From NCBI GenBank assembly GCA_964350245.1, contig CAYGJC010000005.1, positions 37,974 to 101,973 on the forward strand: DNA of 64,000 bases, in the 5' to 3' direction. Shown here piece by piece: positions 1,106 to 36,015 of the stretch; within the stretch, counting starts at the first letter, position 1, and each line of letters opens with the position of its first letter. The notes under the pieces are model-generated. The model worked only from the letters and a program-made list of their open reading frames with translations, searched no databases and had not been told where the DNA came from. The stretch comes from an uncultured bacterium (GTDB taxonomy: Bacteria > Chlamydiota > Chlamydiia > Chlamydiales > JAAKFR01). The position numbers and the translations under genes are program-made.

Positions 1106-1185
1106 CAAAAATTTCTTAAATATCACCAATAGATATAGGTTTATTTAAGAATTTTTGCATCTTAGCTTGCAAAATTTCTTGAATA
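1106..1185. promoter_or_regulatory. Three copies of a ~16-bp motif GCAAAA(A)TTCTT(A/G)AATA upstream of abiEi; candidate operator
   Basis: Copy A is 1106-1122 (caaaaatttcttaaata, + orientation). Copy B is 1142-1158 (tatttaagaatttttgc, inverted). Copy C is 1169-1185 (gcaaaatttcttgaata, +). Copies B and C form a 13-bp inverted repeat (1147-1159 / 1168-1180, 1 mismatch) about 48 nt upstream of the ATG at 1228. Confidence 0.4.
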
Positions 1186-1227
1186 GAACTATATTTAATA
1201 GTACTATCTTAGGAAAATTGCATTCTT

Positions 1228-2067: not shown

Positions 2068-3001
2068 AAAAGAGCTCGTCCGTGAGGCGGGAACAACTGG
2101 TTTTCGTGCCGAAATGTTGGAAAAAGTGTGGCAGTTGATGAACATTCTAGATGGCATACAAGAACATATTTTTCTACGAGATCGATTAGTGCTTAAAGGA
2201 GGGACCGCGCTAAATCTCTTCTTTTTCAATCTTCCGCGCCTATCGGTCGATATCGACTTAAATTATGTTGGGGCTGTAGAGAGATCTCAAATGCAAGCAG
2301 AGCGGCAAGATGTCGAAAGATCTCTTGAATCCATATTTTTAAGGCATGGATTAAGCGTACATCGAACACCCAACAAACATGCAGGGGGCAAATGGCAGCT
2401 CAAATACCTCAGCGCGTTGGGCGGAAACGGCAACTTGGAAGTTGATGTCAACTTCATGTTTAGAATTCCATTAGTTGAGGTGATTAAGAAACAATCTTGC
2501 CAGGTTGGTGCGCGTCAAAGCAGACCAGTAGCACTTCTTGACATCCACGAATTGGGAGCAGGAAAATTAGCAGCCTTATTTGGCCGCCATGCATCCCGCG
2601 ATCTTTTTGATGCTCATGAGTTGCTGTCATATCCTAACATCAATTTTAAAGCATTGAAGCTGTTGAGCATCATTTATTCTGCAATGAGTGGTAAGGACTG
2701 GCGCAAGATTTCTTTAGATACAATCCAATTCGAAAAAAAAGAGGTGAGCCAACAACTCATTCCCGTTTTGCAAAAAAATAAGTTCAAAGAAAGCAGTAAT
2801 TTGACGGAGGATTTATTGCAGGGTTGCAAACAGGCCTTAGGGAAATTTTTTCCACTACAATCTAATGAGATAGAATTTTTGACCCTTTTCTTCGACTATG
2901 GGAAGATCGATGCGTCCCTATTGACACAAGAAGAGGGTTTAAGAGGAAAAATTGAGTCTCACCCTTTGTTAAGGTGGCAGGTTTTAAAAAATGAGAGATG
3001 A
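2054..3001 (+). CDS. AbiEii/AbiGii-family nucleotidyltransferase toxin (DUF1814)
   Basis: Contains LVLKGGTALNLFF...RLSVDIDLNY, the NTase G-x-x and D-x-D motifs of AbiEii. I chose the ATG at 2054 (MKISEKEL) rather than the ORF-track start at 2012. Confidence 0.8.
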   Translation: MKISEKELVREAGTTGFRAEMLEKVWQLMNILDGIQEHIFLRDRLVLKGGTALNLFFFNLPRLSVDIDLNYVGAVERSQMQAERQDVERSLESIFLRHGLSVHRTPNKHAGGKWQLKYLSALGGNGNLEVDVNFMFRIPLVEVIKKQSCQVGARQSRPVALLDIHELGAGKLAALFGRHASRDLFDAHELLSYPNINFKALKLLSIIYSAMSGKDWRKISLDTIQFEKKEVSQQLIPVLQKNKFKESSNLTEDLLQGCKQALGKFFPLQSNEIEFLTLFFDYGKIDASLLTQEEGLRGKIESHPLLRWQVLKNER

Positions 3002-3293
3002 ACATACGAAGTCTATGCAAGACAATGAAGCTTTTATTTTCTTACAGCAAAGGGGTTAGCATTTGCAAAGCATTCAAAATCGATTTTAATCAGGTTGGAA
3101 TCGAGAGCTTGCCAGCATCAAGAAGGAAACTGATGGTTCGGTATGCTCTGAAAAAAATTGGTGTTTGAGAACAGAAGTTACCGAACCATAAAAGTGAACG
3201 AGGCAATTGAGTTTATCAGTCAATTCGCCAGGGAGTTAAGGCATAAAAAAGAGAAGCGTTCTTCTTTCTTTTGAGGAAAAACGTCCGATTAAG

Positions 3294-3375
3294 TGCCCAA
3301 GAGAGGACTCGAACCTCCATGCCTTGCAGCACCAAAACCTGAATCTGGCGTGTCTACCAATTCCACCACCTGGGC
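3294..3375 (-). tRNA. tRNA-Leu (anticodon CAG)
   Basis: The reverse complement reads GCCCAGGTGGTGGAATTGGTAGACACGCCAGATTCAGGTTTTGG...GGTTCGAGTCCTCTCTTGGGCA. It has a 7-bp acceptor stem, a long variable arm and a GGTTCGAGTCC T-arm. The anticodon loop is TTCAGGT. Confidence 0.9.
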
Positions 3376-3404
3376 TTTAAGAAAAAAAATGAGAACCAAA
3401 GATA

Positions 3405-3486
<82 letters not shown>

Positions 3487-3598
3487 ATTCGTGATCCGCA
3501 TATTCTAGAGACTCCCTCCCTTTAATGTCAACAAGATGGTTGTTGGAAATCTTGCGATAAAGTAGCTTAGTCTCTTACTAGATAGGAGGGTAGTCGAT

Positions 3599-4777
3599 AT
3601 GGGCGATGTCAACGCAAGCGCCGTCATGCGTGCAGACCAGCAAGCTGAGATCAAAACACCAACCCAAAAGCAAGGGGCTCTAAAAAGCGAAGGGAAGGAG
3701 CACACGATCTACCCTTTCGCCGATACAGAGTCTGTCTCTGAAGGAGTCAGCAAATTTCTGGGTGAGGCAAATGAACAGCCGCAACCCGAAACGACGCTAG
3801 CAGATCATACTTTCACGCCTATCACTCAAGAAACAGTCGATGTCGAAACGGAGATTGCGCAACTCTCTGAAGAGATCGATCAGGCAGAACCTACTGAAAA
3901 GGGAGGAGAGGCTCCAAAGACAAAAACACCACAAAGGCCACAACAAAAAACTACCTCCCCTCAACCTTTGCCGCTCAATCTCAACCAAAAGGCAGATCAA
4001 CCTGAACCAGTCTACTCTTCCCTCTTTTCTCTTGCACAGTCCTTCAACAAGGGACTCACTGAAACGCGTCAGCAGAAACAGTTTGAAAAACAAGCGCGCA
4101 CGGAAATAAAAGAGGAGACGCGTCCTTCTCAGAAGGCTGCTTTTTCCACCCCTGAGGCTGCAAATCGGGAAACTCCTGTTTCTAAAGGCCGCTATGACCA
4201 ACAACAAAAAGAAGGATCAGGTGGTGGACAGCAACACCAACAGCAAAAAGAGCAGAAAAAAAAGAAGCAGTATGGCGTACAAGCGAGCCATTCTGTGAAC
4301 AGCTCTCCCAAAATGCAGCAGTCACTGGGAAGCATGGAGAGTATTTATATCCGCTTCATGGCGCTCATGGCCCGCATTCTTGGTCAAGCGGAAGCAGAAG
4401 CCCACTCTCTCTACCAACGCATCAAACAGCGCACCGACAGCATCGACCATCTCACCTTGTTGATCTCAAAGATTAACTCCGAAAAAGGAGAAATTGATTG
4501 GGCGAACAATGAGGAAATGAAGCAGCTGGTTGAAAAGGCGCGCGCGCTGGGTGTCGATATTCCGGAAGGCAAATATGCTTGGTCGGAAGAAGAAAAAAAA
4601 CTGCTCAAAGAGAATATCCAAATGCGCAAAGACAGCATGGAAAAAATGACCCAGCTAGAGCGCACCGATATGCAACGGTATCTACAAGAGTCCTCTCAGT
4701 GCCACCAAGCACGCTCTAATGTCTTAAAGCTACTCAAAGAGGTCATGGATACCATCATCCATAACATGAGACCTTAG
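3599..4777 (+). CDS. Hypothetical T3S-associated protein: disordered N-terminus with a helical, EspA/SseB-like C-terminal domain
   Basis: 392 aa. SD-like taggagggtagtcgatATG upstream. The first ~240 aa are Q/E/P/K/T-rich low complexity and the last ~150 aa are predicted helical. The stop lies 3 nt before the chaperone gene, in the CT863-equivalent position. Confidence 0.6.
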   Translation: MGDVNASAVMRADQQAEIKTPTQKQGALKSEGKEHTIYPFADTESVSEGVSKFLGEANEQPQPETTLADHTFTPITQETVDVETEIAQLSEEIDQAEPTEKGGEAPKTKTPQRPQQKTTSPQPLPLNLNQKADQPEPVYSSLFSLAQSFNKGLTETRQQKQFEKQARTEIKEETRPSQKAAFSTPEAANRETPVSKGRYDQQQKEGSGGGQQHQQQKEQKKKKQYGVQASHSVNSSPKMQQSLGSMESIYIRFMALMARILGQAEAEAHSLYQRIKQRTDSIDHLTLLISKINSEKGEIDWANNEEMKQLVEKARALGVDIPEGKYAWSEEEKKLLKENIQMRKDSMEKMTQLERTDMQRYLQESSQCHQARSNVLKLLKEVMDTIIHNMRP

Positions 4778-18244: not shown

Positions 18245-19624
18245 TTATACCATTTTAGACGGCTCCATGTGCAAATCAAACTCCTCTTCGGTCATAAACC
18301 CAAGCTCTATTGCCGCCTCTTTGAGAGTGATGTGCTTGTGATAGGCGTGATGGGCCACCTGAGCCGCCTTATCATAACCAATCACTGGACTCAATGCTGT
18401 GACCAGCATTAAGGAACGGTCTAAAAGTGCTTTGATGTGCCGCTCATTGGCCTTTAACCCCTGAACAAAATAGTCGTCAAACGTACGCATCCCGTCAGAA
18501 AGCAAAACCAGAGAATCGAGAAAATTGTGGATCATCATGGGCTTAAACACGTTCAGCTCGAAATTTCCCCTTGATCCGGCCACACTAAGCGCTTGATCAT
18601 TGCCCATCACATGTACGCAGATCATGGTCAGTGCCTCACATTGAGTTGGATTGACTTTGCCGGGCATAATCGATGAGCCGGGTTCGTTTTCAGGAATGAT
18701 CAGCTCGCCCAAACCGCAACGTGGCCCCGAGCCGAGCCAACTCAAGTCGGTAGCGATTTTGATCAATGAGCACGCAAGAGTCTTTAAAGCGGCATGAGCA
18801 AAAACAAGGGCATCGTGGGCTGCAATTGAAGCAAATTTATTGGACGCAGATACAAAGGGAAGAGCGGTCAGCTCGGCAATCTTTGCACAAACCCGCACCC
18901 CAAATTCTGGGTGTGTATTGATCCCTGTCCCCACAGCCGTCCCCCCAATCGCCAGCTCATAGAGCCTGGGAAGCGTGCTTTCAATCCGCTCGATATCCTG
19001 ATCGAGCTGCTCTACATAGCCGGAAAACTCTTGACCCAGAGTGAGAGGCACCGCATCCATCAGGTGGGTACGCCCAATTTTGACGATTTCACTGAAAGCA
19101 ATTGCCTTTTCATGAAGCGAGGCACGCAGTTTATGCACCATGGGCAGTAAACGATTCCGAAGACTTTCAGCTGCTGCCATGTACATAGCAGTGGGAAAGG
19201 TGTCATTGGAGGATTGAGAGAGATTGACATGATCGTTTGGATGGATCGGATTCTTACTACCAAGCACCCCTCCTGCCATTTCAATCGCTTGATTGGCAAT
19301 CACTTCATTGACATTCATGTTGGTCTGTGTCCCACTTCCTGTTTGCCAAATACTCAGTGGAAAATGCTCTTTTAACTCTCCATCCGCAACTTTCCGAGCT
19401 GCCTGAATGATCAAACGGGCTTTATCCTCAGAAAGAAGTCCTAACTCGCAATTGATCCGAGCAGCCGCCTCTTTGATGATCCCGTAAGCGCGAATCACGG
19501 GTTGCGGAATTTGATCATGACCGATGTTAAAGTGCTTCAAGGAGCGTGCCGTCTGGGCGCCATAGTAAGCCCCAGCCGGAACTTCAATCTCCCCCAGGCT
19601 ATCTGATTCAATACGACTATTCAT
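18245..19624 (-). CDS. fumC: Class II fumarate hydratase
   Basis: Contains the [16 protein letters not shown] signature, with full-length similarity to FumC. Confidence 0.95.
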
Positions 19625-19672
19625 ACCTCATTCATACCATGGTCTCATTCAAAGGGAAAGAAGGATTTTGCC

Positions 19673-21472
19673 TTGACTGGGCAGAGGCCGAACCGTAAAC
19701 TTCGGTCCATGTTTAAGCAGCCCCTTTCTAAGATCGCCCTGGTCCTGCTCTGCTTTTGTATTTTATTTACTACTTGGGAGTGCTGCGCGCGTGCGCTTCC
19801 ACATCTTTCCTTCATTCTCCCGCCTCCAACTGAAATCTTACGCACCCTATGGGAGCTACGCACACGGTTCTACTTTCATACACTATGTACTCTCAAAGAA
19901 ATGCTGGGAGGCTTTCTTCTCGCGCTTCTAGTCGCTTTTCCCCTAGCTTGGACGATGATGCGTTACCAAAGCTCACGCACCATTTTGCAACCTCTTTTCA
20001 TCGTGACCCAATGCCTCCCCATGTTTACTCTTGCTCCGATTATGGTGATTTGGTTTGGTTGGAGCTATACCGCTATCGCGATTCCCACCGCGTTGATGAT
20101 CTTCTTTCCTCTCACATTAAATATCTACCAAGGGCTTCGCTCAACCCCCCAAGACCTACTAGAATTTTTTCAAGCAAACCAAGCAAATGCTTGGCAAACG
20201 TTTTTTAAGCTCCGCCTCCCCTCCGCTGTTCCCCACATCTTTGCCGGGTTTCGGATCTCAGCCGGCATAGCCGGTGTGGGCGCTGTTGCCGGGGAATGGG
20301 CCGGCGCTCAAAATGGACTGGGCATGCTCATGCTTGAAAGCCGGCGTAATACGGATCTTGAAATTACCTTTGGCGCTCTTTTCTGCTTAACCATCATTAG
20401 TACAATACTTTATGGATTGATTCTCTTTTGTGAAAAGATCGCCCTTCCTCCAAGGGTACTGCTTTTACGCCGCAAATTTGCAACCAAAAACGCCCTACTC
20501 CCCACAAAACAACGTCGCAGATCAGGTTTGGTTATTCCCTTCTTTATGGTGGCTTTTCTTCTTCTGGGGCTTGTCGGTTGCCAACAAAAAAATAAAGGCT
20601 GCACCCGCCTCTTACTCGATTGGCTCCCTAATCCCAATCACATTCCCCTCTATGTGGGTATTGAAAAAGGGTTCTTTCGAAATGCGGGGATCGATCTCGA
20701 TATCTTAAAAATGCATGACAGTGGAGGAGGCATTTCTTACCTAACCTCCCGTCAGGCTGATCTACTTGTAAACCACATGCCCGGAACTCTGAAGGCCTGT
20801 TCAAACGGCGCGCCACTCAAAATCGTGGGGCTTTTAATCAAAGAGCCTCTTTCCGGCTTTATTTATCGGAGCGACCCAGCTATTGAAACGACCCAAGACC
20901 TCTCTGGCTCTACACTAGGCTATTGCCTCGGTGGTCCCGATACTGCTTTTCTTGATTTTTTACTCGAAAAGGGAAAGATCGAACCTAAAGAGCGTAAAAA
21001 CATCAGCGTCGACTTAATTTCCGCAATGGGAACCCAGAATGTCGACTTTATTTTTGGAGGCTTTTGGAACATTGAACCGGCCCAGCTTCGCTCCCTTGGA
21101 ATGGAGACAAACCATTTTCCCATTCAAGAGTTTGGTGTACCTAACTACTATGAAATGATTATCTTAGCACATGCTAACTCCAAAGAGAGCACTCCTCAAT
21201 TTGCCTCTGACTTCCAAGTTGCATTACAAAAAAGCATCGACTACTGCTGCGCAAACCCAGACGAGGCTTTCCAAATTTACCGACACTACAATCCTGATCG
21301 ACGAGAAAAGACCTTCGCATGGGAAGAGCAAGCATGGAAATTGACCTGTCCTACTCTGGCAAAGAGTCAACAGGTGGACCTACATGAACTCCACACCTTT
21401 TATCACTGGCTCTGCTCGCAAGAAATTGTGACCAAACCTTTAAACCTTAACTCGCTTATCTCCTATGAATGA
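19673..21472 (+). CDS. Fusion of an ABC permease (NitT/TauT family, ThiX-like) with an NMT1/THI5-like (ThiY-like) substrate-binding domain
   Basis: The N-terminal ~260 aa form a 6-TM permease with an EAA-type loop (LRLPSAVPHIFAGFRISAGIAGVGAVAGEW). An internal lipoprotein-type signal follows (RRRSGLVIPFFMVAFLLLGLVGC). The SBP domain then begins with LDWLPNPNHIPLYVGIEKGFFRNAGIDLDI. An alternative start is the ATG at 19709. Confidence 0.8.
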   Translation: MTGQRPNRKLRSMFKQPLSKIALVLLCFCILFTTWECCARALPHLSFILPPPTEILRTLWELRTRFYFHTLCTLKEMLGGFLLALLVAFPLAWTMMRYQSSRTILQPLFIVTQCLPMFTLAPIMVIWFGWSYTAIAIPTALMIFFPLTLNIYQGLRSTPQDLLEFFQANQANAWQTFFKLRLPSAVPHIFAGFRISAGIAGVGAVAGEWAGAQNGLGMLMLESRRNTDLEITFGALFCLTIISTILYGLILFCEKIALPPRVLLLRRKFATKNALLPTKQRRRSGLVIPFFMVAFLLLGLVGCQQKNKGCTRLLLDWLPNPNHIPLYVGIEKGFFRNAGIDLDILKMHDSGGGISYLTSRQADLLVNHMPGTLKACSNGAPLKIVGLLIKEPLSGFIYRSDPAIETTQDLSGSTLGYCLGGPDTAFLDFLLEKGKIEPKERKNISVDLISAMGTQNVDFIFGGFWNIEPAQLRSLGMETNHFPIQEFGVPNYYEMIILAHANSKESTPQFASDFQVALQKSIDYCCANPDEAFQIYRHYNPDRREKTFAWEEQAWKLTCPTLAKSQQVDLHELHTFYHWLCSQEIVTKPLNLNSLISYE

Positions 21473-24959: not shown

Positions 24960-25838
24960 ATGATTGGAAGAAATGATCCGTGTTGGTGTGGATCGGGGAA
25001 AAAATGGAAGAAGTGTCACTATCCCAGTGAGCCTCCTGTCTCTGAAAAAGAGCGGTTGGTTAACACCTATCTGAAACAGTATCAAATTATTTTGAAGACC
25101 CCTGAGCAGATCAAGGGCATCAAGCGCGCCTGCCACTTGGCAGCCTCGATCCTGGATGCAACCTGTAAAAAAGCTCAGGCAGGTGTGACAACCAATGAAC
25201 TAGACGCCTTTGCTGTGCAGCTTCACAAGGAAGCAGGTGCACAAGCTGCTCCCTACCACTATGGCCACCCTCCATTTCCGAAGAGCATTTGCACCTCCCT
25301 CAATGAAGTCATCTGCCATGGAATACCCGATGATGTGCCCTTGAAGGAAGGAGATATCATGAATATCGATGTCTCCGTGATTTTAGACGGCTATTACGGC
25401 GATTGCAGCCGGATGGTTAAAATTGGAAATGTCACTGAAGAGAGACAGCTAGTCTACGAAGTCTCTTCTGAGTGTTTGGCTCGCTCAATTGCAATCTTAA
25501 AACCAGGCGTTTTGCTACACGAAATTGGAGATGTCATTGAAGACTATGCCGCCTCTCGAGGCTGCTCAGTAGTCAATCAATTTGTGGGGCATGGCGTGGG
25601 CCTACAGTTTCACGAGCCGCCTCAAGTCCCACATCACCGGAACCACCTTAAAATTCCTCTAGCGGCCGGCATGACTTTTACAATTGAACCGATGATCAAT
25701 GCAGGTGTGCGCGAGGCTGTGATAGATCCAATTACTCAGTGGATTGCGACTACAAGAGATGGGAAAGCAAGTGCGCAGTGGGAACACACTGTGTTAATCA
25801 CTGAGACAGGACATGAGATACTAACTCTTCCAACATAG
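24960..25838 (+). CDS. map: Type I methionine aminopeptidase with N-terminal SEC-C zinc motif
   Basis: NDPCWCGSGKKWKKCH SEC-C motif, followed by Map metal ligands (DIMNIDVS, GHGVG, TIEPM, QWEHT). Confidence 0.95.
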   Translation: MIGRNDPCWCGSGKKWKKCHYPSEPPVSEKERLVNTYLKQYQIILKTPEQIKGIKRACHLAASILDATCKKAQAGVTTNELDAFAVQLHKEAGAQAAPYHYGHPPFPKSICTSLNEVICHGIPDDVPLKEGDIMNIDVSVILDGYYGDCSRMVKIGNVTEERQLVYEVSSECLARSIAILKPGVLLHEIGDVIEDYAASRGCSVVNQFVGHGVGLQFHEPPQVPHHRNHLKIPLAAGMTFTIEPMINAGVREAVIDPITQWIATTRDGKASAQWEHTVLITETGHEILTLPT

Positions 25839-27153
25839 TTCTCTCTTCCTCTAAAGAACGCACTTCATCCACCAAATCATTCAATGCAGTTTCATAACAC
25901 TTCTCCCCATCTCTTTCAGGAGAGAGTGCGCGCAGCTCTTGCTCATGCTTTAGAGCAAGCAGTTTGCTTTCTGTAGCAAACAAGTCTTTGCGCGTTTGAG
26001 ATAAGATGTGGCTTTTCTCGTCAAATTGCATCCGAAGCTGTTTGAGCATCCCCTCTAACTTGCGCTGATCGGCGGAGGGAGGTTGCGACGCTTCTTCTTG
26101 TTCCACTTTTAGCTGCGCTTGTTTCTCTTGCAAAACACGTTCTTGCGTGGCTTTTAGTTGCGCAAGCTCCTCTTGCAAGACATTTTCTTGTGTGGCCTTT
26201 AGTTGGGTAAGCTCTTCTTGCAAGATATTTTCTTGCTTTGCTTTCAGTTGTGCAAGCTTCTCTTGGAAGGCACTCTCTTGCGAAGCTTTTAGTTGTGCAA
26301 GCTCCTGTTGGAAAGCACTCTCTTGTGCAGCTTCTAATTGTGCGAGCTTCTCTTGCAAGACATGTTCCTGCTTTGCTTTCAGTTGTGTAAGCTCCTCTTG
26401 AATAGCTGCTTTCTGGCTTTCCAGCTCTTTTTTTGCTGCTGCTTCTTGAACCTCTTTTAAATGCTCCAGCTCCTCTTGAATAGCCACTCTTTGCTCCTCG
26501 CCGCGCTGCTGCCCTTTTTTGGCTTCTGCAACAAAGTAGGCTTTCTGTGATGTGAGCAACTCGATTTCAGATTGAATCAACTCAATCCGCTTCTGGGTCT
26601 GTTCCTTTTCGATGACCCTTTGCTCGGCCTCTTCTTTCAGTTGCTCAATCTCCTCTTCCAAACTTTTTTGCAAAGTCTTCCACTCAGCGGTGCAGTGTTG
26701 CCACTCCAGTTGAGACTGATTGAGCTCACTCGCTTGCTTGCGACTGGTTTCGATCACCTTTTTCATGCCTGTATCGATCTCTTCAACCGCAAGCAGAAGG
26801 ATAAAAAAATCGATCGCCAAAGAAAAAACAAGACCCATTTGCCAAAACCGCTGATCAACGGGGATCTCTCGATAGAGACCGAGTACCAAAAGGGCCAGTC
26901 CTAAAAAACAACCTCCTAAGCCAACAGATTTCCACCTCAGGCAGATCAAGCCTCCAATCAACGCAAAAAAAGGAAGATAGGCAGAAAAGACCGAAGGGGA
27001 GAAAAAACTGACCCCAATGGTAAATAAGAGAAGGATGGACGGAATCGATCCCCAAAAAAAAGTACGCCCACAAACGCTCTCAGGAACTATCTTGGAAAGG
27101 ATTTTTATGAGAGAAAAAGGGGCTTTTGTTTGCGTGGAAGTTGAGATGGTCAT
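25798..27153 (-). CDS. Membrane protein with a long repetitive coiled-coil domain
   Basis: The N-terminal ~125 aa contain about 4 hydrophobic segments. A ~300-aa E/Q/K/L coiled coil follows, containing 15-aa tandem repeats. Confidence 0.7.
   Translation of the reverse strand: MTISTSTQTKAPFSLIKILSKIVPESVCGRTFFWGSIPSILLLFTIGVSFFSPSVFSAYLPFFALIGGLICLRWKSVGLGGCFLGLALLVLGLYREIPVDQRFWQMGLVFSLAIDFFILLLAVEEIDTGMKKVIETSRKQASELNQSQLEWQHCTAEWKTLQKSLEEEIEQLKEEAEQRVIEKEQTQKRIELIQSEIELLTSQKAYFVAEAKKGQQRGEEQRVAIQEELEHLKEVQEAAAKKELESQKAAIQEELTQLKAKQEHVLQEKLAQLEAAQESAFQQELAQLKASQESAFQEKLAQLKAKQENILQEELTQLKATQENVLQEELAQLKATQERVLQEKQAQLKVEQEEASQPPSADQRKLEGMLKQLRMQFDEKSHILSQTRKDLFATESKLLALKHEQELRALSPERDGEKCYETALNDLVDEVRSLEEERTMLEELVSHVLSQ
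26089..26478 (-). repeat. In-frame tandem repeat, period 45 bp (15 aa, QEELAQLKATQENVL-type), about 8-9 units
   Basis: Units read from the translation are QEELEHLKEVQEAAA / QEELTQLKAKQEHVL / QEKLAQLEAAQESAF / QQELAQLKASQESAF / QEKLAQLKAKQENIL / QEELTQLKATQENVL / QEELAQLKATQERVL / QEKQAQLKVEQEEAS. The periodicity is also visible in the DNA (cttgcaag...agttg[tc]gcaagct). Confidence 0.85.
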
Positions 27154-27206
27154 AACAAGCTCTTAAACATCGAAGAGTCAATATTGTATACTAATCAATC
27201 CCTCTG

Positions 27207-27431
27207 TCAATTAGAAATTCCATCTTCATTATGTTCAATAAAGCCTTGGGCGTTTTCGAGGAGATAGGAAGCGAGAATGGGATCTCCTTCGTAGCTCATT
27301 TCAACGGACATTTTTCCATCAGCTGAGGGTTGTCCACACGTGATGACAATACAACACGCTTGATCCTCTTTCAGAATTTTTTGTTTGCTCACGCGCAGTC
27401 CCTGGTTCTTTTTTTTAGATCCCTCAGGCAT
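27207..27431 (-). CDS. Small hypothetical protein (74 aa)
   Basis: ORF only, with a weak purine-rich tract upstream. No motif recognised. Confidence 0.35.
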   Translation of the reverse strand: MPEGSKKKNQGLRVSKQKILKEDQACCIVITCGQPSADGKMSVEMSYEGDPILASYLLENAQGFIEHNEDGISN

Positions 27432-27547
27432 ATACTTCTTATCATTAGCGCGCAGATCACAGCAAGTTGCAATATACGCAATAAACTCATGTCATAGGGC
27501 AAGAAAAAATATTTGTCAAAGCTACAATGTTGCGCTAACGTGAAGTC

Positions 27548-28618
27548 ATGGAAATTGTCGAGACTTTAGAGAAGTGGGCGCAGGTCAATTCTCATTCTTT
27601 AAACAGCGCTGGACTCGAAAAGATGGTCCAACTTGCTAAGCAGGCCTGTACGTCTCTTCGACCCGACGAAATGAGGCATTATCCCTTCGGACTTTCAATA
27701 AAAAAAAGAAAAAACGCCCCCCTCCAGATTTTTCTCGGAGGACATCTCGATACGGTTTTTTCCACTGAACACCCCTTTCAAACCGTGAAGCGATTAGACC
27801 CAGACAGACTACAGGGGCCCGGCGTAACCGATATGAAAGGAGGCATCTTGGTAATGCTTCTAGCTCTGAAAGAATTTGAAGCCTCTGCTTATGCTGAGCG
27901 AGTGGGATGGGAGATTTTTCTCAATCTAGACGAGGAGCTCGGTTCCCCTCAATCTGCTTTCTACCACCAAAAACACGCTCATCAATTTCACTACGCTCTT
28001 ATTTTTGAACCCACCCTGCCCAATGGCTCATTTGTGAGCGCTCGCAAATCTTCTTCCACCTATTCGGTTGTGAGCCATGGAGTCTCCGCACACGCCGGAA
28101 GAGATCCCGAAAAGGGGAAAAATGCAATCTATCCCTTAAGCAGATTCCTCGCCCAGGTAGAGAAACTACATACTTCTGAGACATGCATAAATGCAGGTCT
28201 CATCAAAGGAGGCACAGCCTTTAATGTCGTTCCTGATTACGCTGAGGCGACGCTTAATATTCGCTCATACGAGGAGATGGAACCGGCGCTGAAAAAACTC
28301 GCTGACGATGAGGGAGTCGAACTCAACCGTATTACCTACCGCCCTGCCAAACCCTTTAATGCACAAACTCAGCAACTCTTTTCCCTACTCAAAGAGTGTG
28401 GTGAAATGCTTGGACAAAGCGTGCAATGGGAGGAGACGGGAGGTGTTTGTGACGGCAATACTTTCGGAGCGGCAGGAATCCCCACAATTGACACAATGGG
28501 TGTTGAGGGAGACGGGATCCATACTAGTCAAGAATATGTCTATCTACCTAGTATTACAAAAAAGGCTCAATTAACAGCTCGCCTACTTGAAGAGCTTGCC
28601 AAAAGAGAAACGCTATGA
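27548..28618 (+). CDS. M20-family metallopeptidase (CPG2/ArgE/DapE-like); candidate N-succinylglutamate desuccinylase
   Basis: GGHLDTVF and GPGVTDMKGG metal-binding and catalytic blocks. The stop overlaps the next gene's start (ATGA). This is the first gene of the ast-like operon. Confidence 0.8.
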   Translation: MEIVETLEKWAQVNSHSLNSAGLEKMVQLAKQACTSLRPDEMRHYPFGLSIKKRKNAPLQIFLGGHLDTVFSTEHPFQTVKRLDPDRLQGPGVTDMKGGILVMLLALKEFEASAYAERVGWEIFLNLDEELGSPQSAFYHQKHAHQFHYALIFEPTLPNGSFVSARKSSSTYSVVSHGVSAHAGRDPEKGKNAIYPLSRFLAQVEKLHTSETCINAGLIKGGTAFNVVPDYAEATLNIRSYEEMEPALKKLADDEGVELNRITYRPAKPFNAQTQQLFSLLKECGEMLGQSVQWEETGGVCDGNTFGAAGIPTIDTMGVEGDGIHTSQEYVYLPSITKKAQLTARLLEELAKRETL

Positions 28619-29988
28619 CCGATCTCACCGCTGATGCGCTGCGGCGCGACCCTGATTTTTACACGTCTGTACAGAAAATCCTTGACACTGTTGAGAGACA
28701 CAGCAGTAAAATTGAGGGTATCCGTCCCCCGAATCCAGTGCTCACACAAACATACGAAGAGACGCTAGAGACTTTCAATGGCTACCGAGGCAATCCTCTT
28801 TTTTACCCCTACTTAGGTAGCGGTCTGGGAAAAGGCACTCTTGTCGAACTGGCTGATGGAAGTGTAAAACACGACTTTATCAGCGGCATTGGCGTGCATT
28901 TTGGACACTCCCACCCAACCGTTCTCGCAGCAATGCTGCAAGGAGCTGTCGAAGATATCGCCATGCAAGGACACTTGCAGCAAAACCGCATCTCCTTTGA
29001 GCTAACTGAACTCCTTTTAAAATTCACCCATATGGATCATGGCATCCTCTGCAACTCAGGTGCAATGGCTAATGAGAATGCCCTTAAAATCATCCTGCAG
29101 AAAAAAGCGCCCGCACACCGTATTCTGGCTTTTGATCGCTGTTTCATGGGACGCACCCTTGCTCTTGCGCAAATCACGGATAAAGCGGCTTTTCGGCAGG
29201 GTCTCCCCCACATCCTTCATGTCGATTACGTTCCTTTTTACGACTGGCGCGACCCTGCCGGTAGCACCCAGAAAGCCCTAGAAGCTCTTGCCAAGCTCCT
29301 GAAGCGTCATCCTGAAAAATATGCGTGCATGTGCTTTGAGCTCATCCAAGGAGAAGGCGGGTGTAACCCAGGGGAAAAGGCATTTTTTGTCGCACTGATG
29401 CAAACGCTCAAAGAACACTCTATTGCCGTGATGGTTGATGAGGTTCAAACATTTGGTCGAACTGATTGCCTACTTGCCTACCAGAGCTTTGGTCTGGAAG
29501 AGTTTGTCGACGTGGTCACAGTGGGCAAACTGATGCACACCTGTGCCACTCTTTTTACTTCTGAGTTTTGTCCTCTCCCAGGCTTGATTGCACAAACCTA
29601 CACGGCAGCTAGTTCCTCCATGTACGTCGCAAAGGCAATCCTACACTCTTTGGTGAACGATGGCTATCTGGGCAGCAATGGAAAAAACATGCAGATTCGT
29701 CAGCATTTTGTCGACCATCTTGAGAAAATTGCCCAAAAATACCCCGACCACTTTGAAGGGCCCTTTGGGCACGGCCTTATGATTGCAGCAACCCCTTTTA
29801 AAGGGGATAGAGAACGTGTAATCCATTTTGTCCATGCTCTATTTAAAGCAGGCGTCATTGCCTTCATTGCTGGAAATGAGCCAACGCGTATCCGCTTTTT
29901 AGTTCCTGCAGGAGGCGTTACAATGGAAGCCATCGACCAGGTTTCTGTTATCTTAGAAGAGGTGTTGGTTGAATGCCTGAGCCCATAG
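28615..29988 (+). CDS. Class III (PLP) aminotransferase, presumptive succinylornithine transaminase
   Basis: NSGAMANENALK and MVDEVQTFGRT blocks of class III aminotransferases. At 457 aa it is longer and more divergent than E. coli AstC. Confidence 0.7.
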   Translation: MTDLTADALRRDPDFYTSVQKILDTVERHSSKIEGIRPPNPVLTQTYEETLETFNGYRGNPLFYPYLGSGLGKGTLVELADGSVKHDFISGIGVHFGHSHPTVLAAMLQGAVEDIAMQGHLQQNRISFELTELLLKFTHMDHGILCNSGAMANENALKIILQKKAPAHRILAFDRCFMGRTLALAQITDKAAFRQGLPHILHVDYVPFYDWRDPAGSTQKALEALAKLLKRHPEKYACMCFELIQGEGGCNPGEKAFFVALMQTLKEHSIAVMVDEVQTFGRTDCLLAYQSFGLEEFVDVVTVGKLMHTCATLFTSEFCPLPGLIAQTYTAASSSMYVAKAILHSLVNDGYLGSNGKNMQIRQHFVDHLEKIAQKYPDHFEGPFGHGLMIAATPFKGDRERVIHFVHALFKAGVIAFIAGNEPTRIRFLVPAGGVTMEAIDQVSVILEEVLVECLSP

Positions 29989-30962
29989 CGATCATAAGAC
30001 CTGCACACATCGATGACCTCAAACACTTTTATGCTTTTGCAATGGAGGCAGGCCCTGGAATCACTAGCTTGCCTAGGAGTGAGAAACATCTCGAACAGCT
30101 CCTCCTAAATCCTAAGGAAAAAGGAAGTTTTCTCTTTTGCCTTGAGTGGGATGGAAATGTGATTGGCACAACCGGGTTGGTCACACATGTCGGTGTTGAA
30201 AACCCCTTTTTTGCCTACCACAAAAAATTCGAATCCTTTCGCTCTGCTTCACTCCAAATCGACCGAGATGTTCCTGTTTTACATTTTATCGAAGCGCACA
30301 AAAAACCCACTGAGATCGGAACCTTATATCTAAAAAAAGCATTCCGAAAACACGGTTTTGGTCCTCTGCTCTCTTATGCCCGCTTTTTATATATTGCTCT
30401 TTACAGAGACCTTTTTGCTTCCTCGGTGATTGCCGAAATACGTGGTTTCAACAACAAGGGTGTCTCTCCCTTTTGGGGGGCGATTGGCCGCCCTTTTTTC
30501 AACCTTCCCTTTTCCGAGGCTGATCATTTACGGATTCTCAATCCAGAGGCGATTCAAGAGCTCTTTCCACGGCATCCCATTTACACCATTTTGCTTGCGC
30601 AAGAGGCGCAAGAAGCGATGGGTAATCCGCATCCCTTTACGGTCCCTGCAAAAAAAATGTTAGAAAAACAGGGGTTTCGTACGAGCGATTACCTCGATAT
30701 CTTTGATGGGGGACCTCACCTCTATGCTCCCACAGATGAGATCCACGCAGTGACCACAAGCCAAAGAGCGCAGATTTCTACTTTATCTCAAGCGCTTGTA
30801 GATGGCGAAAAAGCCATTGTTGCCACGACCACAAACCCATTTTACGCCTGCGCCACCTCTATTTTAATCGAAGAAGGGCGCGTGACCCTTTCCCAAGAGG
30901 CAGGAAAAGCTTTAAATGTAGAAGTTGGAGAAGAAATCATTTTTTACAGGTTTGCCTCATGA
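29973..30962 (+). CDS. astA: Arginine N-succinyltransferase
   Basis: N-terminus IIRPAHIDDLKHFYAFAMEAGPGITSLPRSEKHLEQ resembles E. coli AstA ([34 protein letters not shown]). Length is 329 aa. Confidence 0.85.
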   Translation: MPEPIAIIRPAHIDDLKHFYAFAMEAGPGITSLPRSEKHLEQLLLNPKEKGSFLFCLEWDGNVIGTTGLVTHVGVENPFFAYHKKFESFRSASLQIDRDVPVLHFIEAHKKPTEIGTLYLKKAFRKHGFGPLLSYARFLYIALYRDLFASSVIAEIRGFNNKGVSPFWGAIGRPFFNLPFSEADHLRILNPEAIQELFPRHPIYTILLAQEAQEAMGNPHPFTVPAKKMLEKQGFRTSDYLDIFDGGPHLYAPTDEIHAVTTSQRAQISTLSQALVDGEKAIVATTTNPFYACATSILIEEGRVTLSQEAGKALNVEVGEEIIFYRFAS

Positions 30963-32422
30963 GAGAGTCGCATTTTATTTCGGGAAGCTGGGTTGAAGGA
31001 TTTGGAGAGCCCTTCCGTTCCCTTAACCCCGCCACCCAATCGACTCTTTGGGAGGGACGCCAAGCGACTCCCGATGAGGTTCACGAAGCTGTTTCTGCTG
31101 CACGAGAGGCCTTTCCTAAGTGGAGCGCGCTTAACTTTGAAAAGCGCCTCTCTTTTCTCAAAGAGTATGAAAAAACTCTCAAAGAAAATAACTCTCAACT
31201 CGTAGAGGCAATCTGCCAAGAGACAGGGAAGCCCAAGTGGGAATCGACCCAGGAGGTCAATGCCATGATCGGCAAGATCGACGTTTCAGTCGAAGCTTAC
31301 CGAGAAAGATGTCCCGATAAAGCAGTGACCTCGACGCTCCACACGAGACACAAACCCCATGGAGTTGCAGCTGTTTTAGGTCCTTTCAACTTCCCTGCCC
31401 ACCTTCCCAATGGACATATCGTGCCTGCCCTTCTAGCGGGTAACACCGTCGTTTTTAAAAGTAGCGACTACACACCTCTTGTCGCAGAAACCATGATGCG
31501 CTGCCTCTCTTCACTTCCTAGGGGAGTGATCAATCTAGTTCAAGGAAAAGAAACAACGGGTCACTCTTTGGCAATTCACCCTCAAATTGATGCTCTTTTT
31601 TTTACCGGAAGCCACAAAACGGGGGCTCTACTGCTGGATGCATTCCGTCACCATCCTGAGAAAATCCTCGCTCTTGAAATGGGAGGGAATACGCCTCTGA
31701 TCGTCACCGAAACAAATGATTTAGAAGGAGCCGCCTACTTGACCATTCAGTCAGCCTATCTCACAGCCGGACAACGGTGCTCGTGTGCGCGGCGATTGAT
31801 CGTCCCCACCGGCAAAGAGGGGGATGAATTTCTCAAGATTCTCACACATATGGTAGCCTCTATCCAAGTAGGGCCCTACACCGATCAACCCGAACCATTT
31901 ATGGGCCCACTCATTGATCTAGGCATCACAGAAAAGCTTCTCAACGCACAAGCGACCTATGGAGCCGAAGGTGGAGACTGTCTTGTTGAGATGACTCCCC
32001 TCAAAGCGGAACTCCCCTTCTTAACTCCCGGTCTAATGGATGTGACAGAGGTACACCACATCGTTGATGAAGAGCTTTTTGGCCCCTTCCTCAAAGTGAC
32101 GCGCGTCCCAAACTTTGAAACCGCAATCAAAGAGGCCAACCGTACAAGGTATGGACTGGCTGCCGGTCTGATCAGCTCTAATCCCGAGAAATACCACCGT
32201 TTTTATAGGGAAGTGAGAGCTGGCGTCATCAACTGGAATCACCCCACAACCGGAGCAAGTAGCCGCGCCCCTTTTGGAGGTTTGGGAAACAGTGGAAACT
32301 TTAGGCCAGGCGGCTATTATGCAGCAGATTATTGCTCCTACCCAGTTGCCTCTATGGAACAAGAAACTCTTCACATCCCTAGGCAGATCGCCCCCGGAAT
32401 TACCTTTTTGGCAAAATCATGA
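30959..32422 (+). CDS. astD: Succinylglutamate-semialdehyde dehydrogenase
   Basis: Aldehyde dehydrogenase family (ALEMGGNTP, AGQRCSCARRL catalytic Cys) with an AstD-like N-terminus (FISGSWVEG...). ATGA overlaps on both sides. Confidence 0.85.
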   Translation: MRESHFISGSWVEGFGEPFRSLNPATQSTLWEGRQATPDEVHEAVSAAREAFPKWSALNFEKRLSFLKEYEKTLKENNSQLVEAICQETGKPKWESTQEVNAMIGKIDVSVEAYRERCPDKAVTSTLHTRHKPHGVAAVLGPFNFPAHLPNGHIVPALLAGNTVVFKSSDYTPLVAETMMRCLSSLPRGVINLVQGKETTGHSLAIHPQIDALFFTGSHKTGALLLDAFRHHPEKILALEMGGNTPLIVTETNDLEGAAYLTIQSAYLTAGQRCSCARRLIVPTGKEGDEFLKILTHMVASIQVGPYTDQPEPFMGPLIDLGITEKLLNAQATYGAEGGDCLVEMTPLKAELPFLTPGLMDVTEVHHIVDEELFGPFLKVTRVPNFETAIKEANRTRYGLAAGLISSNPEKYHRFYREVRAGVINWNHPTTGASSRAPFGGLGNSGNFRPGGYYAADYCSYPVASMEQETLHIPRQIAPGITFLAKS

Positions 32423-33660
32423 GAGAAGTCAACTTTGATGGCCTCGCTGGTCCCTCCCACTACTTTGGCGGATTGTCTTATGGCAACCTAGCGTCGATGG
32501 AGCATGCTAAGCGCCCCTCCAACCCAAAACAAGCCGCCCTTCAGGGTCTCAAAAAAATGAAACGCCTCGCTGATCTGGGAATTCCTCAAGCCGTATTACC
32601 GCCCCAAGAGCGTCCCTCAATCCCTTACCTGCGCGCACTCGGATTTCGAGGGAAGGACCACGAGATTCTTGCCCAAACCCCACCTGATCTACGTGCTCTT
32701 CTCTGCTCTTCTTCAGCCATGTGGCGGGCCAACAGCGCCACTGTCACTCCTTCATGCGATAGTTTTGATGGACGTGTCCACATCACGATTGCAAATCTAC
32801 TCGCTACCCTACATCGCACGCTTGAGGTAGAAGAGACCCAAAGGCTGTTTTGTCTTCTTTTCTCAAACCCCGAAAAATTTGCCCTACACTCTCCATTGCC
32901 CTTTGCAGACGAGGGATCAGCCAACCACATCCGTTTTACTCCCTCTGAGGATCAACCCGGCACCCACCTTTATGTATATGGGAGAAGTGTTTTTGAGCCG
33001 AATACCACCCGTTTTCCGGCTAGGCAGACCAAAGAAGCCTGTGAAGCCATCGCACGTACTCACGGCAGCCGCGCTGTCTTTGCCCGCCAAAATCCTGCCC
33101 TGATCGAAAAAGGGGTCTTTCACAACGACGTGATCGCCTGCGGAAATCGTTCGACGCTTCTTTATCACCCCGAAGCCTTTGAGGATACCGGCAGTGTCTT
33201 GGCTCAGATCGAGCGCACCTGCCCTCTCCAAAAGATCCAAGTCGAAATCTCCATCGAGCAGGCCATTGAAACCTACCTGTTCAACTCTCAACTCCTCACA
33301 CTGCCCGATCAAACGCAACTGCTGCTCGCTCCATCGGAGTGCCATCAGCTCTCTCTCAACTGGCTCCCTTTTCCTGTAGAGTTTGTTGATCTTAAACAGA
33401 GTATGTTGAATGGAGGGGGGCCTGCTTGTTTGCGTCTTGCCGTTCCTCTAACTGATGAGGAAATCCAAGAAATACATCCTCAAATCTTCTTAGATGAAGC
33501 GCTTTACCGAAAGCTAACAGACTGGGTGTCAGAATACTATCGAGATCGACTGACTCCTGCAGATTTTGCTGATCCAGTCTTTCTAACAGAGGTGCAAACA
33601 GCACTCGACGCCCTCACCCAAATTCTCAAGTTCGGCTCGTTTTACTCATTCCAGTCATGA
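32419..33660 (+). CDS. astB: N-succinylarginine dihydrolase
   Basis: REVNFDGLAGPSHYFGGLSYGN matches the AstB N-terminus ([21 protein letters not shown]). The C-terminal NGGGPACLRL block contains the catalytic Cys. Confidence 0.9.
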   Translation: MREVNFDGLAGPSHYFGGLSYGNLASMEHAKRPSNPKQAALQGLKKMKRLADLGIPQAVLPPQERPSIPYLRALGFRGKDHEILAQTPPDLRALLCSSSAMWRANSATVTPSCDSFDGRVHITIANLLATLHRTLEVEETQRLFCLLFSNPEKFALHSPLPFADEGSANHIRFTPSEDQPGTHLYVYGRSVFEPNTTRFPARQTKEACEAIARTHGSRAVFARQNPALIEKGVFHNDVIACGNRSTLLYHPEAFEDTGSVLAQIERTCPLQKIQVEISIEQAIETYLFNSQLLTLPDQTQLLLAPSECHQLSLNWLPFPVEFVDLKQSMLNGGGPACLRLAVPLTDEEIQEIHPQIFLDEALYRKLTDWVSEYYRDRLTPADFADPVFLTEVQTALDALTQILKFGSFYSFQS

Positions 33661-33987
33661 GCCCTGTTGAGAAGTAGGCCATTCTTTTCCATACAGCTCC
33701 TCGTACAACCGTCTGTACTCTTCATTCTCCAACATATAGCGACGCCCTCTTGCTCTCAACTCCCTTTGTTCACGCGCGCGGCGCATTCGCCTTGTATAGC
33801 GCTCTTCCCATTGCCGTTCCCGCTCGTCTAAATCGATTTCTCCCCAACTCCCCTGGAGTTGTCGTTCCTGATATGGAGTGTTGAGTTCTTCCGTGGTTGG
33901 CCTTTCCTGCATGAAATCACCGTCTTCTTGTGCCATCATGGATGCAGAAAAAAGCACCACATATGCCGTCAAAAAAAATGTTCTCAT
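33655..33987 (-). CDS. Small secreted R/E-rich hypothetical protein
   Basis: 110 aa. SD GAAGGAAG upstream. Signal peptide MRTFFLTAYVVLFSASMMAQ, then a highly charged R/E/Q-rich sequence. Confidence 0.5.
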   Translation of the reverse strand: MRTFFLTAYVVLFSASMMAQEDGDFMQERPTTEELNTPYQERQLQGSWGEIDLDERERQWEERYTRRMRRAREQRELRARGRRYMLENEEYRRLYEELYGKEWPTSQQGS

Positions 33988-34123
33988 TTTTCTTCCTTCT
34001 TAAATCACCACTAGTGATGATAAGCCATCTGCATGCCAGCCTGTCTGTTTTGGATTTATCTCGATTTTATCAAGTCCGAGCCCAAAGCCGGATGGCAATA
34101 GTCCCCATCTTGACTTTTCTTAC

Positions 34124-34759
34124 TCATACCAGTGAGGAGGGGGGGCCAAAGCCGCAAAAAAAGTTGACACTAGGCATCTCTATTCCTTGATTCAATTCGC
34201 GGAAAAGCAGGCTGGCGATAACAAAGGGCCAAGGGAGCAAGGCTAAAACAATAAAAACCCGATCGTTCCTATTTCCTAAGTGAAAAGCTCCGCCCCTTCC
34301 AAAGGCCATCCCACATAGCTGCACGAACTGCAAGGCGCAGACCACAAGTGCCCCTATCATCCCCACTTTTTCGGCAATGACTGAGGGAGATCGCCTATCC
34401 AGAGGGGTAAAAGAGCGTAGTACCATTGCCACAGGGGGGCCAAATCCACAAGCAAACCTCAATCTAGGAATAATGAGATGTTTGTTTGAGCGCTGCGCTG
34501 AGACAAGCCAGATTGTCATCCAGATCGATGCCACCAGACCATAGAGTTTTTGAACCCGTTTTATTAAGGGACTTTGAAGACGTTGACACCCCTTAAAAGG
34601 GAGGCATGTATAGGCGGCCATACTGCAGACTAAAGCCGCGCAAGCGACTTGCTGAATACTTTGATTTGAATCCCCCTTAGCAGACTCTAGTGGCCTAAAG
34701 GACTCGAGATCCAGCTGATGCTGCCCTGTATAAGGAATAAGTGCCATAATACTGAGCAA
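34124..34759 (-). CDS. Hypothetical membrane protein with repeated CGFGPP motif
   Basis: About 207-211 aa (TTG at 34759 or ATG at 34747). Several hydrophobic segments. The motif C-G-F-G-P-P occurs twice (RFACGFGPPVAMV and NFFCGFGPPSSLV). Divergent from the triplet operon. Confidence 0.5.
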   Translation of the reverse strand: MLSIMALIPYTGQHQLDLESFRPLESAKGDSNQSIQQVACAALVCSMAAYTCLPFKGCQRLQSPLIKRVQKLYGLVASIWMTIWLVSAQRSNKHLIIPRLRFACGFGPPVAMVLRSFTPLDRRSPSVIAEKVGMIGALVVCALQFVQLCGMAFGRGGAFHLGNRNDRVFIVLALLPWPFVIASLLFRELNQGIEMPSVNFFCGFGPPSSLV

Positions 34760-34929: not shown

Positions 34930-35418
34930 ATGCCAGGTTCTACAGTTACTAAAGATAAGAACCCTGATCAGATCCAGCCTCTTCAAGCCAGCCCTGCTGC
35001 TACTAAGAGTGAAGGAGGAACGCCTAAATTTAACTATTTTACCATCCTCTTCTACCTCCTCGTTGATGCGATGCAGACTAGGCAGGATACCGTCTTGACT
35101 CAGTCAAAGGTCCTAGAGGCTAACTCAGCTGCTCAGAACAAGTTAAACAAGGAAAACGCCCAAATTAAGTTTAGCATCCTTCCTGAAGGGGCTAACAACC
35201 CCACGATTAACCGAGTTCAGGACCAAAACCAACAGTATGCGGCGTCTAGAGAAGATATTCAGAACGCACTGATTACGTGTCGTCAGACAGCTCAGGTAGA
35301 GATGACCCAGACGACGACAAACGTGAACATTTTACAGCAAGATGCTTCGGAAGACTCCGGGTGGTTGAAGACCCTGAACACCATCTTCCAAGTCATCAAT
35401 GAACTTACTAAGAGATAA
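34930..35418 (+). CDS. Small helical protein, paralog 1 of 3 (EspA/SseB-like architecture, putative T3S substrate)
   Basis: 162 aa. AAGGTAATAAAAATATG initiation region. Hydrophobic helix FTILFYLLVDAM, then KVLEANSAAQNKLNKE. C-terminal Q/N/T-rich heptad helix. Confidence 0.7.
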   Translation: MPGSTVTKDKNPDQIQPLQASPAATKSEGGTPKFNYFTILFYLLVDAMQTRQDTVLTQSKVLEANSAAQNKLNKENAQIKFSILPEGANNPTINRVQDQNQQYAASREDIQNALITCRQTAQVEMTQTTTNVNILQQDASEDSGWLKTLNTIFQVINELTKR

Positions 35419-35433
35419 AAAAAGGTATAATAA

Positions 35434-36000
35434 ATGGTATTAGAAACAATAAAAAAAGAAGCTATTTTTTTGGGCGCTCACGAAGCCCATAAGAAAAGCG
35501 CTGTGCAACAAGCAGCGCAAAAAAAACAAGAGAACGGGAGCGGTGTTGATCCTCTTATCCTCGCTTACTCGATGATTTTTCATGCGGTTCAAATTAACCA
35601 TGAAACCGCTTCGATCAAGTCAAAAGAGGTACAAGCAAATGCCGTTGCTCAGAATAAGTTGATCGACCGCGAGGGTGTCTTTAACTTCTACACTTTATCA
35701 AAGCACCAATTGTTCGCTAAGGACGTGCATATGAACATCTGGAACGGAAAGCACTACGTTACTTATGCGATGAGAACAAAGGTCGCTCAAACGGACCTGA
35801 CACAGCTGAACACAAAGAACCAAGAGATTGCGGCTCTGCGAAACCAGCTGGGAGACAAACTGACTGTACTACAGCAGGGGTCTCAGATTAAAGAAACCGA
35901 GGTGAACACGGTCATGAGTGAGAACCAGCAATCGATCTCACAAGGATCTAGTTTGATGAATATGTTGGTTAGTTTATCCAACCAAATTTCGCAAATATAA
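35434..36000 (+). CDS. Small helical protein, paralog 2 of 3
   Basis: 188 aa. AAGGTATAATAAATG initiation region. LILAYSMIFHAV, then KEVQANAVAQNKLIDRE. W-N-G core. C-terminal LTVLQQGSQIKETEVNTVMSENQQSISQGSSLMNMLVSLSNQI. Confidence 0.7.
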   Translation: MVLETIKKEAIFLGAHEAHKKSAVQQAAQKKQENGSGVDPLILAYSMIFHAVQINHETASIKSKEVQANAVAQNKLIDREGVFNFYTLSKHQLFAKDVHMNIWNGKHYVTYAMRTKVAQTDLTQLNTKNQEIAALRNQLGDKLTVLQQGSQIKETEVNTVMSENQQSISQGSSLMNMLVSLSNQISQI

Positions 36001-36015
36001 TTAAGGTAATAAAAT

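Follow-up and report, generated by a model that had tools for sequence, protein, structure and literature searches.

How is arginine degradation completed by an arginine succinyltransferase (AST) operon that lacks the gene for its usual last enzyme? The question is raised by five plus-strand open reading frames (ORFs) at positions 27548–33660 of a 64,000-nucleotide stretch of DNA (hereafter the window; contig CAYGJC010000005.1 of assembly GCA_964350245.1) from an uncultured member of the Chlamydiales. In the canonical AST operons, astCADBE of Escherichia coli and aruCFGDBE of Pseudomonas aeruginosa, the desuccinylase is AstE. The window operon likewise encodes homologs of AstA, AstD and AstB and a class III aminotransferase proposed for the AstC step, all within a single operon. 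By comparison, it contains no AstE, is led by an M20 metallohydrolase in the order M20–aminotransferase–astA–astD–astB, and has an aminotransferase that belongs to a separate, longer subfamily (457 residues). Our analysis makes it quite probable that this is a functional, vertically inherited AST operon in which two steps are taken by non-canonical enzymes, with the M20 protein at the AstE step. The same net chemistry, from arginine to two glutamate and succinate, is expected of it.

Enzymes encoded by the operon

The five genes overlap at their starts and stops, by ATGA at 28615, 30959 and 32419 and by 16 nt at 29973–29988, so that they make up a single translationally coupled unit, preceded by a leader of 394 bp (Table 1). 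An earlier note on this stretch had described five tightly coupled genes, and the same coordinates, ATGA overlaps and 16-nt overlap were recovered from the ORF listing of the window.

The products of astD and astB score above the cut-offs of their models, with 652.7 bits for AstD on TIGR03240 (cut-off 579.3) and 530.9 bits for AstB on NF009789 (cut-off 452), in addition to 535 bits for AstB on PF04996. In AstD, C274 of the GQRCSCARR motif and E240, presumably the catalytic pair, are conserved; in AstB, C337 of the GGGPAC motif, which we take to be the catalytic cysteine, is conserved in 68 orthologs together with several histidine, aspartate and glutamate residues. AstA matches PF04958 at 302 bits and lies under its equivalog cut-offs, reaching 266.6 versus 284 bits on the arginine/ornithine (AOST) subfamily model TIGR03243 and 246.5 versus 391 bits on the AstA model TIGR03244. 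The aminotransferase matches Aminotran_3 (PF00202, 165 bits) and reaches no equivalog model. Though its best solved relative is the E. coli succinylornithine transaminase (AstC, 4ADB, 78 bits), it reaches 111 bits on the astC model, whose cut-off is 610, in agreement with the divergence from canonical AstC that the earlier note had pointed out. Its K305, presumably the pyridoxal phosphate (PLP) lysine, and D275, E276 and Q278, presumably its motif, are conserved in 31 orthologs. Conservation of catalytic residues was judged for the M20 protein, the aminotransferase, AstD and AstB, AstA not being among the products checked.

These sequence comparisons support the view that the operon holds a complete AST-type set minus AstE. 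Four of the five AST steps can be assigned, desuccinylation is the sole gap, and the sole unassigned enzyme is the M20 amidohydrolase. AstE is itself a metal-dependent amidohydrolase, as are the M20 enzymes, but AstE and AruE belong to the AstE/AspA family (TIGR03242), which is unrelated in family and fold to the window protein for which the same reaction is proposed.

An AstE ortholog was not found elsewhere in the genome either. The assembly that holds the window (1.88 Mb in 40 contigs) is 99.4% complete, and neither TIGR03242 nor PF04952 gave a match at E ≤ 1 anywhere in it; no AstE/AspA-type gene lies in the operon. The statement that no AstE-type gene is present thus stands for the operon and, across the genome, for a true AstE ortholog. 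It does not extend to the whole AstE/AspA superfamily, a distant member of which is encoded on contig 16 and is weighed below.

Family, residues and structure of the M20 hydrolase

The leading protein of the operon matches Peptidase_M20 (PF01546, 88.8 bits) and M20_dimer (PF07687, 65.4 bits), both above the gathering score, and falls into the NCBIfam family NF005602/PRK07338 (387.7 bits, cut-off 357). This family bears only the name 'hydrolase', and in public annotations its proteins appear as 'hydrolase', 'glutamate carboxypeptidase' or 'carboxypeptidase G2'. The DapE, ArgE and glutamate-carboxypeptidase models all score far under their cut-offs on the window protein (DapE and ArgE at most 98 bits), and the AstE/AspA models searched give no match to it. 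The homolog search ran among 8000 candidates and yielded more than 6000 proteins at E ≤ 1e-20, some of which lie outside the NF005602 subfamily.

An AlphaFold model computed with 20 homologs, with a predicted local distance difference test (pLDDT) score of 93.3, adopts the two-domain M20 fold. Its top structure matches are carboxypeptidase G2 (CPG2) and DapE, with template modeling (TM) scores of 0.77–0.80; the structural neighbors come in the order CPG2 (TM 0.78), a long series of DapE structures, then PepT and ArgE. CPG2 (PDB 1CG2, M20A) is also the best solved match in sequence, at 87 bits. By comparison with the window protein, identity is only about 25%, and the acyl group is pteroyl or benzoyl in CPG2 rather than the proposed succinyl. 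DapE (N-succinyl-L,L-diaminopimelate desuccinylase) and ArgE (acetylornithine deacetylase) share the two-domain fold and take N-succinyl or N-acetyl off an amino acid, like the reaction proposed here, whereas the genomic context of the window protein is that of ast genes, not of lysine or arginine synthesis. CPG2 cleaves N-acyl-L-glutamates and DapE strips N-succinyl from an amino acid; by analogy, hydrolysis of N-succinyl-L-glutamate would join these two specificities.

H66, D95, E129, E130, E154 and H325 of the M20 protein are invariant across 101 homologs. Counting positions along the alignment places the first five on CPG2 H112, D141, E175, E176 and E200, and H325 seems to match CPG2 H385, as read by eye over a gapped stretch. 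We take the five CPG2 positions to be metal and catalytic residues. The M20 protein would accordingly possess the di-metal ligand set (His, bridging Asp, Glu, Glu, His) and the catalytic Glu, and would work like CPG2 or DapE, with a bridged two-metal center held by H66, D95, E130, E154 and H325 and with E129 as the putative general base. The dimerization ('lid') domain would contribute H182 together with R166, R185, R239 and K268. The latter four residues are basic and invariant in the 101 ast-linked homologs, and may serve to hold the substrate by its three carboxylates. In CPG2, by comparison, R166 and R185 are replaced by Gly and Ala, and the N terminus of the window protein is shorter than that of CPG2.

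Co-occurrence with ast genes in Chlamydiota

A sample of 201 chlamydial genomes from 30 families and 114 genera was searched for AstB and for the NF005602 M20 hydrolase. Each is encoded by 42 genomes, 40 of which encode both, and in 35 of these 40 the genes share a contig and are within about 15 kb of each other. The order M20–aminotransferase–astA–astD–astB is found in all 18 AstB-positive clusters fetched (nine families), and the aminotransferase takes the same position in 20 of 20 chlamydial clusters fetched, as well as occurring in 'delta'proteobacterial and planctomycete clusters. Two genomes, G001 and G077, carry the M20 gene without AstB, and both still have M20–aminotransferase–astA–astD; retention of M20 with astD but without astB indicates that M20 follows AstD rather than AstB.

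AstB is spread over 12 of the 30 families and 32 of the 114 genera; the genus with 1.0–1.2-Mb genomes, which we take to be Chlamydia, yielded none. The AST pathway is not unusual among environmental chlamydiae. The earlier note had called it unexpected in this lineage, a view that these counts do not bear out. Conservation of the M20 gene together with ast genes among relatives, about which the note had asked, is borne out by 40 of the 42 AstB-positive chlamydial genomes and by genomes far beyond this phylum, as described in the following section.

The surroundings of the cluster were also noted in the two genomes that lack AstB. In G077 (Parachlamydiaceae-like family f5), the gene after astD overlaps its end by 4 nt (1265–4111, minus strand, of stretch L117) and encodes a 948-residue fusion of an FAD-linked oxidase with 4Fe-4S and CCG domains that resembles D-lactate/2-hydroxyacid dehydrogenases. 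In G001 (family f2), the operon abuts convergent genes, one of them protein-kinase-like, and the tree branches leading to the AstA and M20 proteins of this genome are very long.

Damaged genes occur in several relatives. The astB gene is split into two overlapping pieces in the same-genus genome G071 (C20:12021-13230) and holds TGA and TAG in G194 (C1:215853-217188), and the M20 gene contains one stop codon each in G114 (C2:457438-458637) and G014 (C26:9647-10852). These may be signs of cluster decay; sequencing or assembly errors are also possible.

Distribution beyond Chlamydiota and exclusivity with AstE

A pattern scan in which each species was represented by a single genome gave 80 M20 loci. 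They are distributed over Alpha-, Gamma- and 'Delta'proteobacteria, Planctomycetota, Verrucomicrobiota and Chlamydiota, and astA, astD or astB lies directly alongside the M20 gene in 70 of them. Sphingomonad clusters are composed of M20–astA–astB, with astD encoded elsewhere and above the cut-off in four of five. AstE above the cut-off was found in none of 50 M20-bearing genomes, in which the best score was 48.6 bits.

The relation between the two hydrolases was examined in the order of a Marinobacterium genome, picked regardless of M20 and AstE and represented by 121 genomes, 31 of them AstB-positive. Among these 31, 15 encode AstE, 15 encode M20, none encodes both and one encodes neither. 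Ten of the 15 AstE-type genes score above the cut-off, and three of the five that do not adjoin astB; all 15 M20 genes score above the cut-off (at least 500 bits), and nine of them adjoin astB. A class-level sample around the same genome (three M20, one AstE, one neither) contained only seven AstB-positive genomes, too few to judge, and the order-level sample was used instead. As controls, E. coli encodes AstB and AstE and no M20, and Caulobacter vibrioides encodes AstB and M20 and no AstE. The sampled genomes are related and not independent, and the either/or pattern is given without a p-value. Such a pattern is what non-orthologous gene displacement classically leaves behind.

Gene clustering, exclusivity with AstE and plausible chemistry make the M20 protein the best candidate for the AstE step, consistent with the stand-in role that the earlier note had assigned to it. 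By comparison, its framing of this replacement as a chlamydial peculiarity proved too narrow, the arrangement being widespread in Proteobacteria and in Planctomycetes–Verrucomicrobia–Chlamydiae (PVC) bacteria.

Possible alternative roles of the M20 hydrolase and the operon

Several observations weigh against the assignment of the M20 protein to the AstE step and of the operon to arginine degradation. Two AstB-positive chlamydial genomes (G002 and G121) have no M20 gene, the AstB-positive gammaproteobacterium G466 has neither AstE nor M20, and nine of the 80 M20 loci have no ast gene nearby, four of these nine contigs ending just past M20. No assayed enzyme of the NF005602 subfamily was found in the literature searched, the function resting wholly on comparative genomics. 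The sub-cut-off scores of AstA leave its substrate, arginine or ornithine, not certain, and no arginine importer was identified, there being only two APC-family permeases, whose substrate is not assigned. Finally, contig 16 encodes a 329-residue protein of the AstE/AspA superfamily (18857–19843 of that contig; 1180–2169, minus strand, of stretch L001), which matches PF24827, the AstE_AspA catalytic domain, at 81–83 bits.

The M20 protein could act at an earlier step, for example on N-succinylornithine to give ornithine in the manner of ArgE, so that the operon would serve a short arginine-to-ornithine route or branch and succinylglutamate would be cleaved otherwise or not at all. ArgE and other N-acyl-ornithine and N-acyl-lysine deacylases do belong to the same fold family; the closest solved relative, however, is CPG2, an enzyme that hydrolyzes N-acyl-glutamates. 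Similarly, many sphingomonad clusters consist only of M20, astA and astB, but sphingomonads still encode astD elsewhere, and every chlamydial cluster fetched includes the aminotransferase and astD. They stay with M20 even where astB has been lost (G001 and G077), which connects M20 with what AstD produces and not with what AstB produces. The strict either/or relation with AstE is what replacement at the AstE step predicts. We therefore regard action at an earlier step as unlikely.

The contig-16 protein might be the real succinylglutamate desuccinylase, with the M20 protein as an accessory, such as a peptidase that supplies amino acids. Its superfamily includes AstE, and its PF24827 match is the evidence in its favor; yet it gives no AstE equivalog match at E ≤ 1, and its best relatives are N-acetyl-diaminobutyrate deacetylases of the DoeB type. 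The gene lies directly upstream of a major facilitator superfamily (MFS) transporter gene and has no ast neighbor. Genes of this type occur in 33 of the 201 chlamydial genomes, and only nine of these 33 belong to the 42 that encode AstB; they were found in none of the 22 genomes of family f5, the family richest in AstB-positive genomes (16 of 22), and are present in 12 of 23 genomes of family f8, which is without AstB. Because of this DoeB affinity, the MFS neighbor and a distribution that does not co-vary with ast genes, the contig-16 protein is a poor candidate for the AST step, and we give its being the desuccinylase very little credence. Compared directly, the M20 and contig-16 proteins have no similarity (E = 0.57).

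It is equally improbable that the operon no longer degrades arginine, whether decaying or serving a different amine, for instance ornithine or something chemically akin to it: AstA has its top score on the arginine/ornithine subfamily model, itself just short of the cut-off, genes are damaged in the four relatives named above and astB is lost in two genomes, but here all five frames are open and tightly coupled, the conserved catalytic residues are kept, and the succinylarginine-specific AstB is intact, with 87% identity to its sister-species counterpart.

Origin of the operon

A quick maximum-likelihood tree was built from 101 M20 sequences; its 26 chlamydial members lie on one side of a branch with a Shimodaira–Hasegawa-like approximate likelihood-ratio test (SH-aLRT) support of 99, and the window protein falls within its own family, beside that of a same-genus genome at 81% identity. 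The chlamydial sequences form one clade in the AstA tree too (support 94). In the AstB tree, chlamydial monophyly is not recovered in the free tree (three changes), and the well-supported branches permit a single origin. Planctomycetes and Thermodesulfobacteriota are nearest to the chlamydial M20 branch, and the long aminotransferase is common to them as well. Since the trees are unrooted and the non-chlamydial rows were selected via M20 similarity, they name neither a donor nor a direction of transfer, and for the latter reason they do not place chlamydial AstA and AstB relative to AstE-type lineages.

Succinylarginine dihydrolase of Parachlamydia is listed in a 2011 table (PMC3220658) of genes that amoeba-resisting bacteria may have gained by horizontal transfer, and transfer from Gammaproteobacteria or Legionellales had been suggested for the operon of the window. 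By comparison, the trees give no support to a recent acquisition by this genome, and chlamydial M20 and AstA each form one clade. As part of the reading that we hold to be quite probable, the operon has been vertically inherited and this variant is of old standing and frequent in environmental chlamydiae, as it is in several further phyla of bacteria.

Surroundings of the operon

The features of the operon are collected in Table 1. A scan of 27100–34200 returned six sigma-70-type promoter sites versus 5.7 expected from shuffles, no excess over chance, and no plus-strand terminator was found in the same interval. The G+C content is 49.1% in the operon versus 46.5% in the window.

Table 1. Features of the AST-type operon, in window coordinates
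Feature	Coordinates	Strand	Proposed role or remark
Intergenic leader before the operon, 394 bp	27154..27547	+	Promoter presumably within
M20 metallohydrolase, 356 residues, NF005602/PRK07338 subfamily	27548..28618	+	Proposed N-succinyl-L-glutamate desuccinylase, functional analog of AstE
Divergent long class III (PLP) aminotransferase, 457 residues	28615..29988	+	Proposed N-succinylornithine 5-aminotransferase (AstC step)
astA, 329 residues	29973..30962	+	Arginine (possibly arginine/ornithine) N-succinyltransferase
astD, 487 residues	30959..32422	+	N-succinylglutamate 5-semialdehyde dehydrogenase
astB, 413 residues	32419..33660	+	N-succinylarginine dihydrolase

No mobile-element genes were seen near the operon, and no transporter or regulator adjoins it. 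The ORFs on either side, 25798–27153 (minus strand, 451 residues) and 34124–34759 (minus strand, 211 residues), have no Pfam match at E ≤ 1. The flanking genes are otherwise ordinary, and some are typical of chlamydiae, including a SEC-C-tagged methionine aminopeptidase, a DUF720 triplet, and pncA with nicotinate phosphoribosyltransferase. The DUF720 (PF05302) genes are three tandem paralogs at 34930–36603 (plus strand), shortly 3' of the operon region. The isochorismatase-family gene, a pncA-like nicotinamidase, overlaps the nicotinate phosphoribosyltransferase gene at 37181–39386 (minus strand), and the two look like an NAD salvage pair.

Discussion

In the pathway that we propose, AstA would move succinate from succinyl-CoA onto L-arginine, and AstB would convert N2-succinylarginine to N2-succinylornithine, two NH3 and CO2. 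The long class III aminotransferase would then turn N-succinylornithine and 2-oxoglutarate into N-succinylglutamate semialdehyde and glutamate, and AstD would oxidize the semialdehyde to N-succinylglutamate with a yield of NADH. Finally, the M20 di-metal hydrolase would cleave N-succinyl-L-glutamate to succinate and glutamate, the reaction of AstE in E. coli and Pseudomonas. Most of these assignments follow from family membership, and that of the fifth step from comparative genomics.

The products would enter the tricarboxylic acid (TCA) cycle of the organism. Its genome encodes the succinyl-CoA synthetase beta subunit (sucC), the 2-oxoglutarate dehydrogenase E1 component (sucA) and a Glu/Leu/Phe/Val (ELFV)-type dehydrogenase, which makes both a supply of succinyl-CoA and the entry of glutamate and succinate into the cycle plausible; the ELFV-type dehydrogenase may convert glutamate to 2-oxoglutarate. 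The best match to the latter, at 43023–43784 of contig 13, lies inside a 1021-residue frame, far longer than an ordinary glutamate dehydrogenase, and this frame may encode a large NAD-specific glutamate dehydrogenase. The DNA is present in four biofilm-metagenome runs of one study, from which it probably comes, and in no listed RNA run.

We found no paper that names an M20 enzyme as a substitute for AstE, nor one that discusses the AST pathway in chlamydiae; subscription journals lay outside this search, and 'undescribed' is accordingly provisional. The GapMind study of carbon sources (PMC9007349) mentions only the canonical AstE.

A broader proposal can be offered tentatively, with a chance that we put slightly short of even. 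The M20 hydrolases of NF005602 may be a second class of N-succinylglutamate desuccinylase, unrecognized and about as common as the first. Joined by the long aminotransferase, these enzymes may define a distinct 'M20-type' AST pathway that is common to PVC bacteria (Chlamydiota and Planctomycetota) and Thermodesulfobacteriota, that chlamydiae have kept since before their radiation, and by which environmental chlamydiae could burn the arginine of their hosts to obtain NADH, glutamate and succinate.

If the role proposed for the M20 hydrolase is confirmed, a function would be given to a large family that is named only 'hydrolase' or mislabeled 'glutamate carboxypeptidase', and a pathway hole would be closed in the AST genomes that lack AstE, namely about half of those examined from one order of Gammaproteobacteria and those of sphingomonads, Caulobacter, planctomycetes and environmental chlamydiae. 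Automated reconstructions for which AstE is obligatory would then wrongly call arginine catabolism incomplete in these organisms. The system is a variant of the known AST pathway, and it provides a clear and cheap experimental prediction for a large unnamed hydrolase family. For the chlamydiae themselves, about a fifth of the sampled species, none of them in the presumed genus Chlamydia, could use arginine for carbon, nitrogen and reducing power, and arginine would be a host-derived fuel of environmental chlamydiae.

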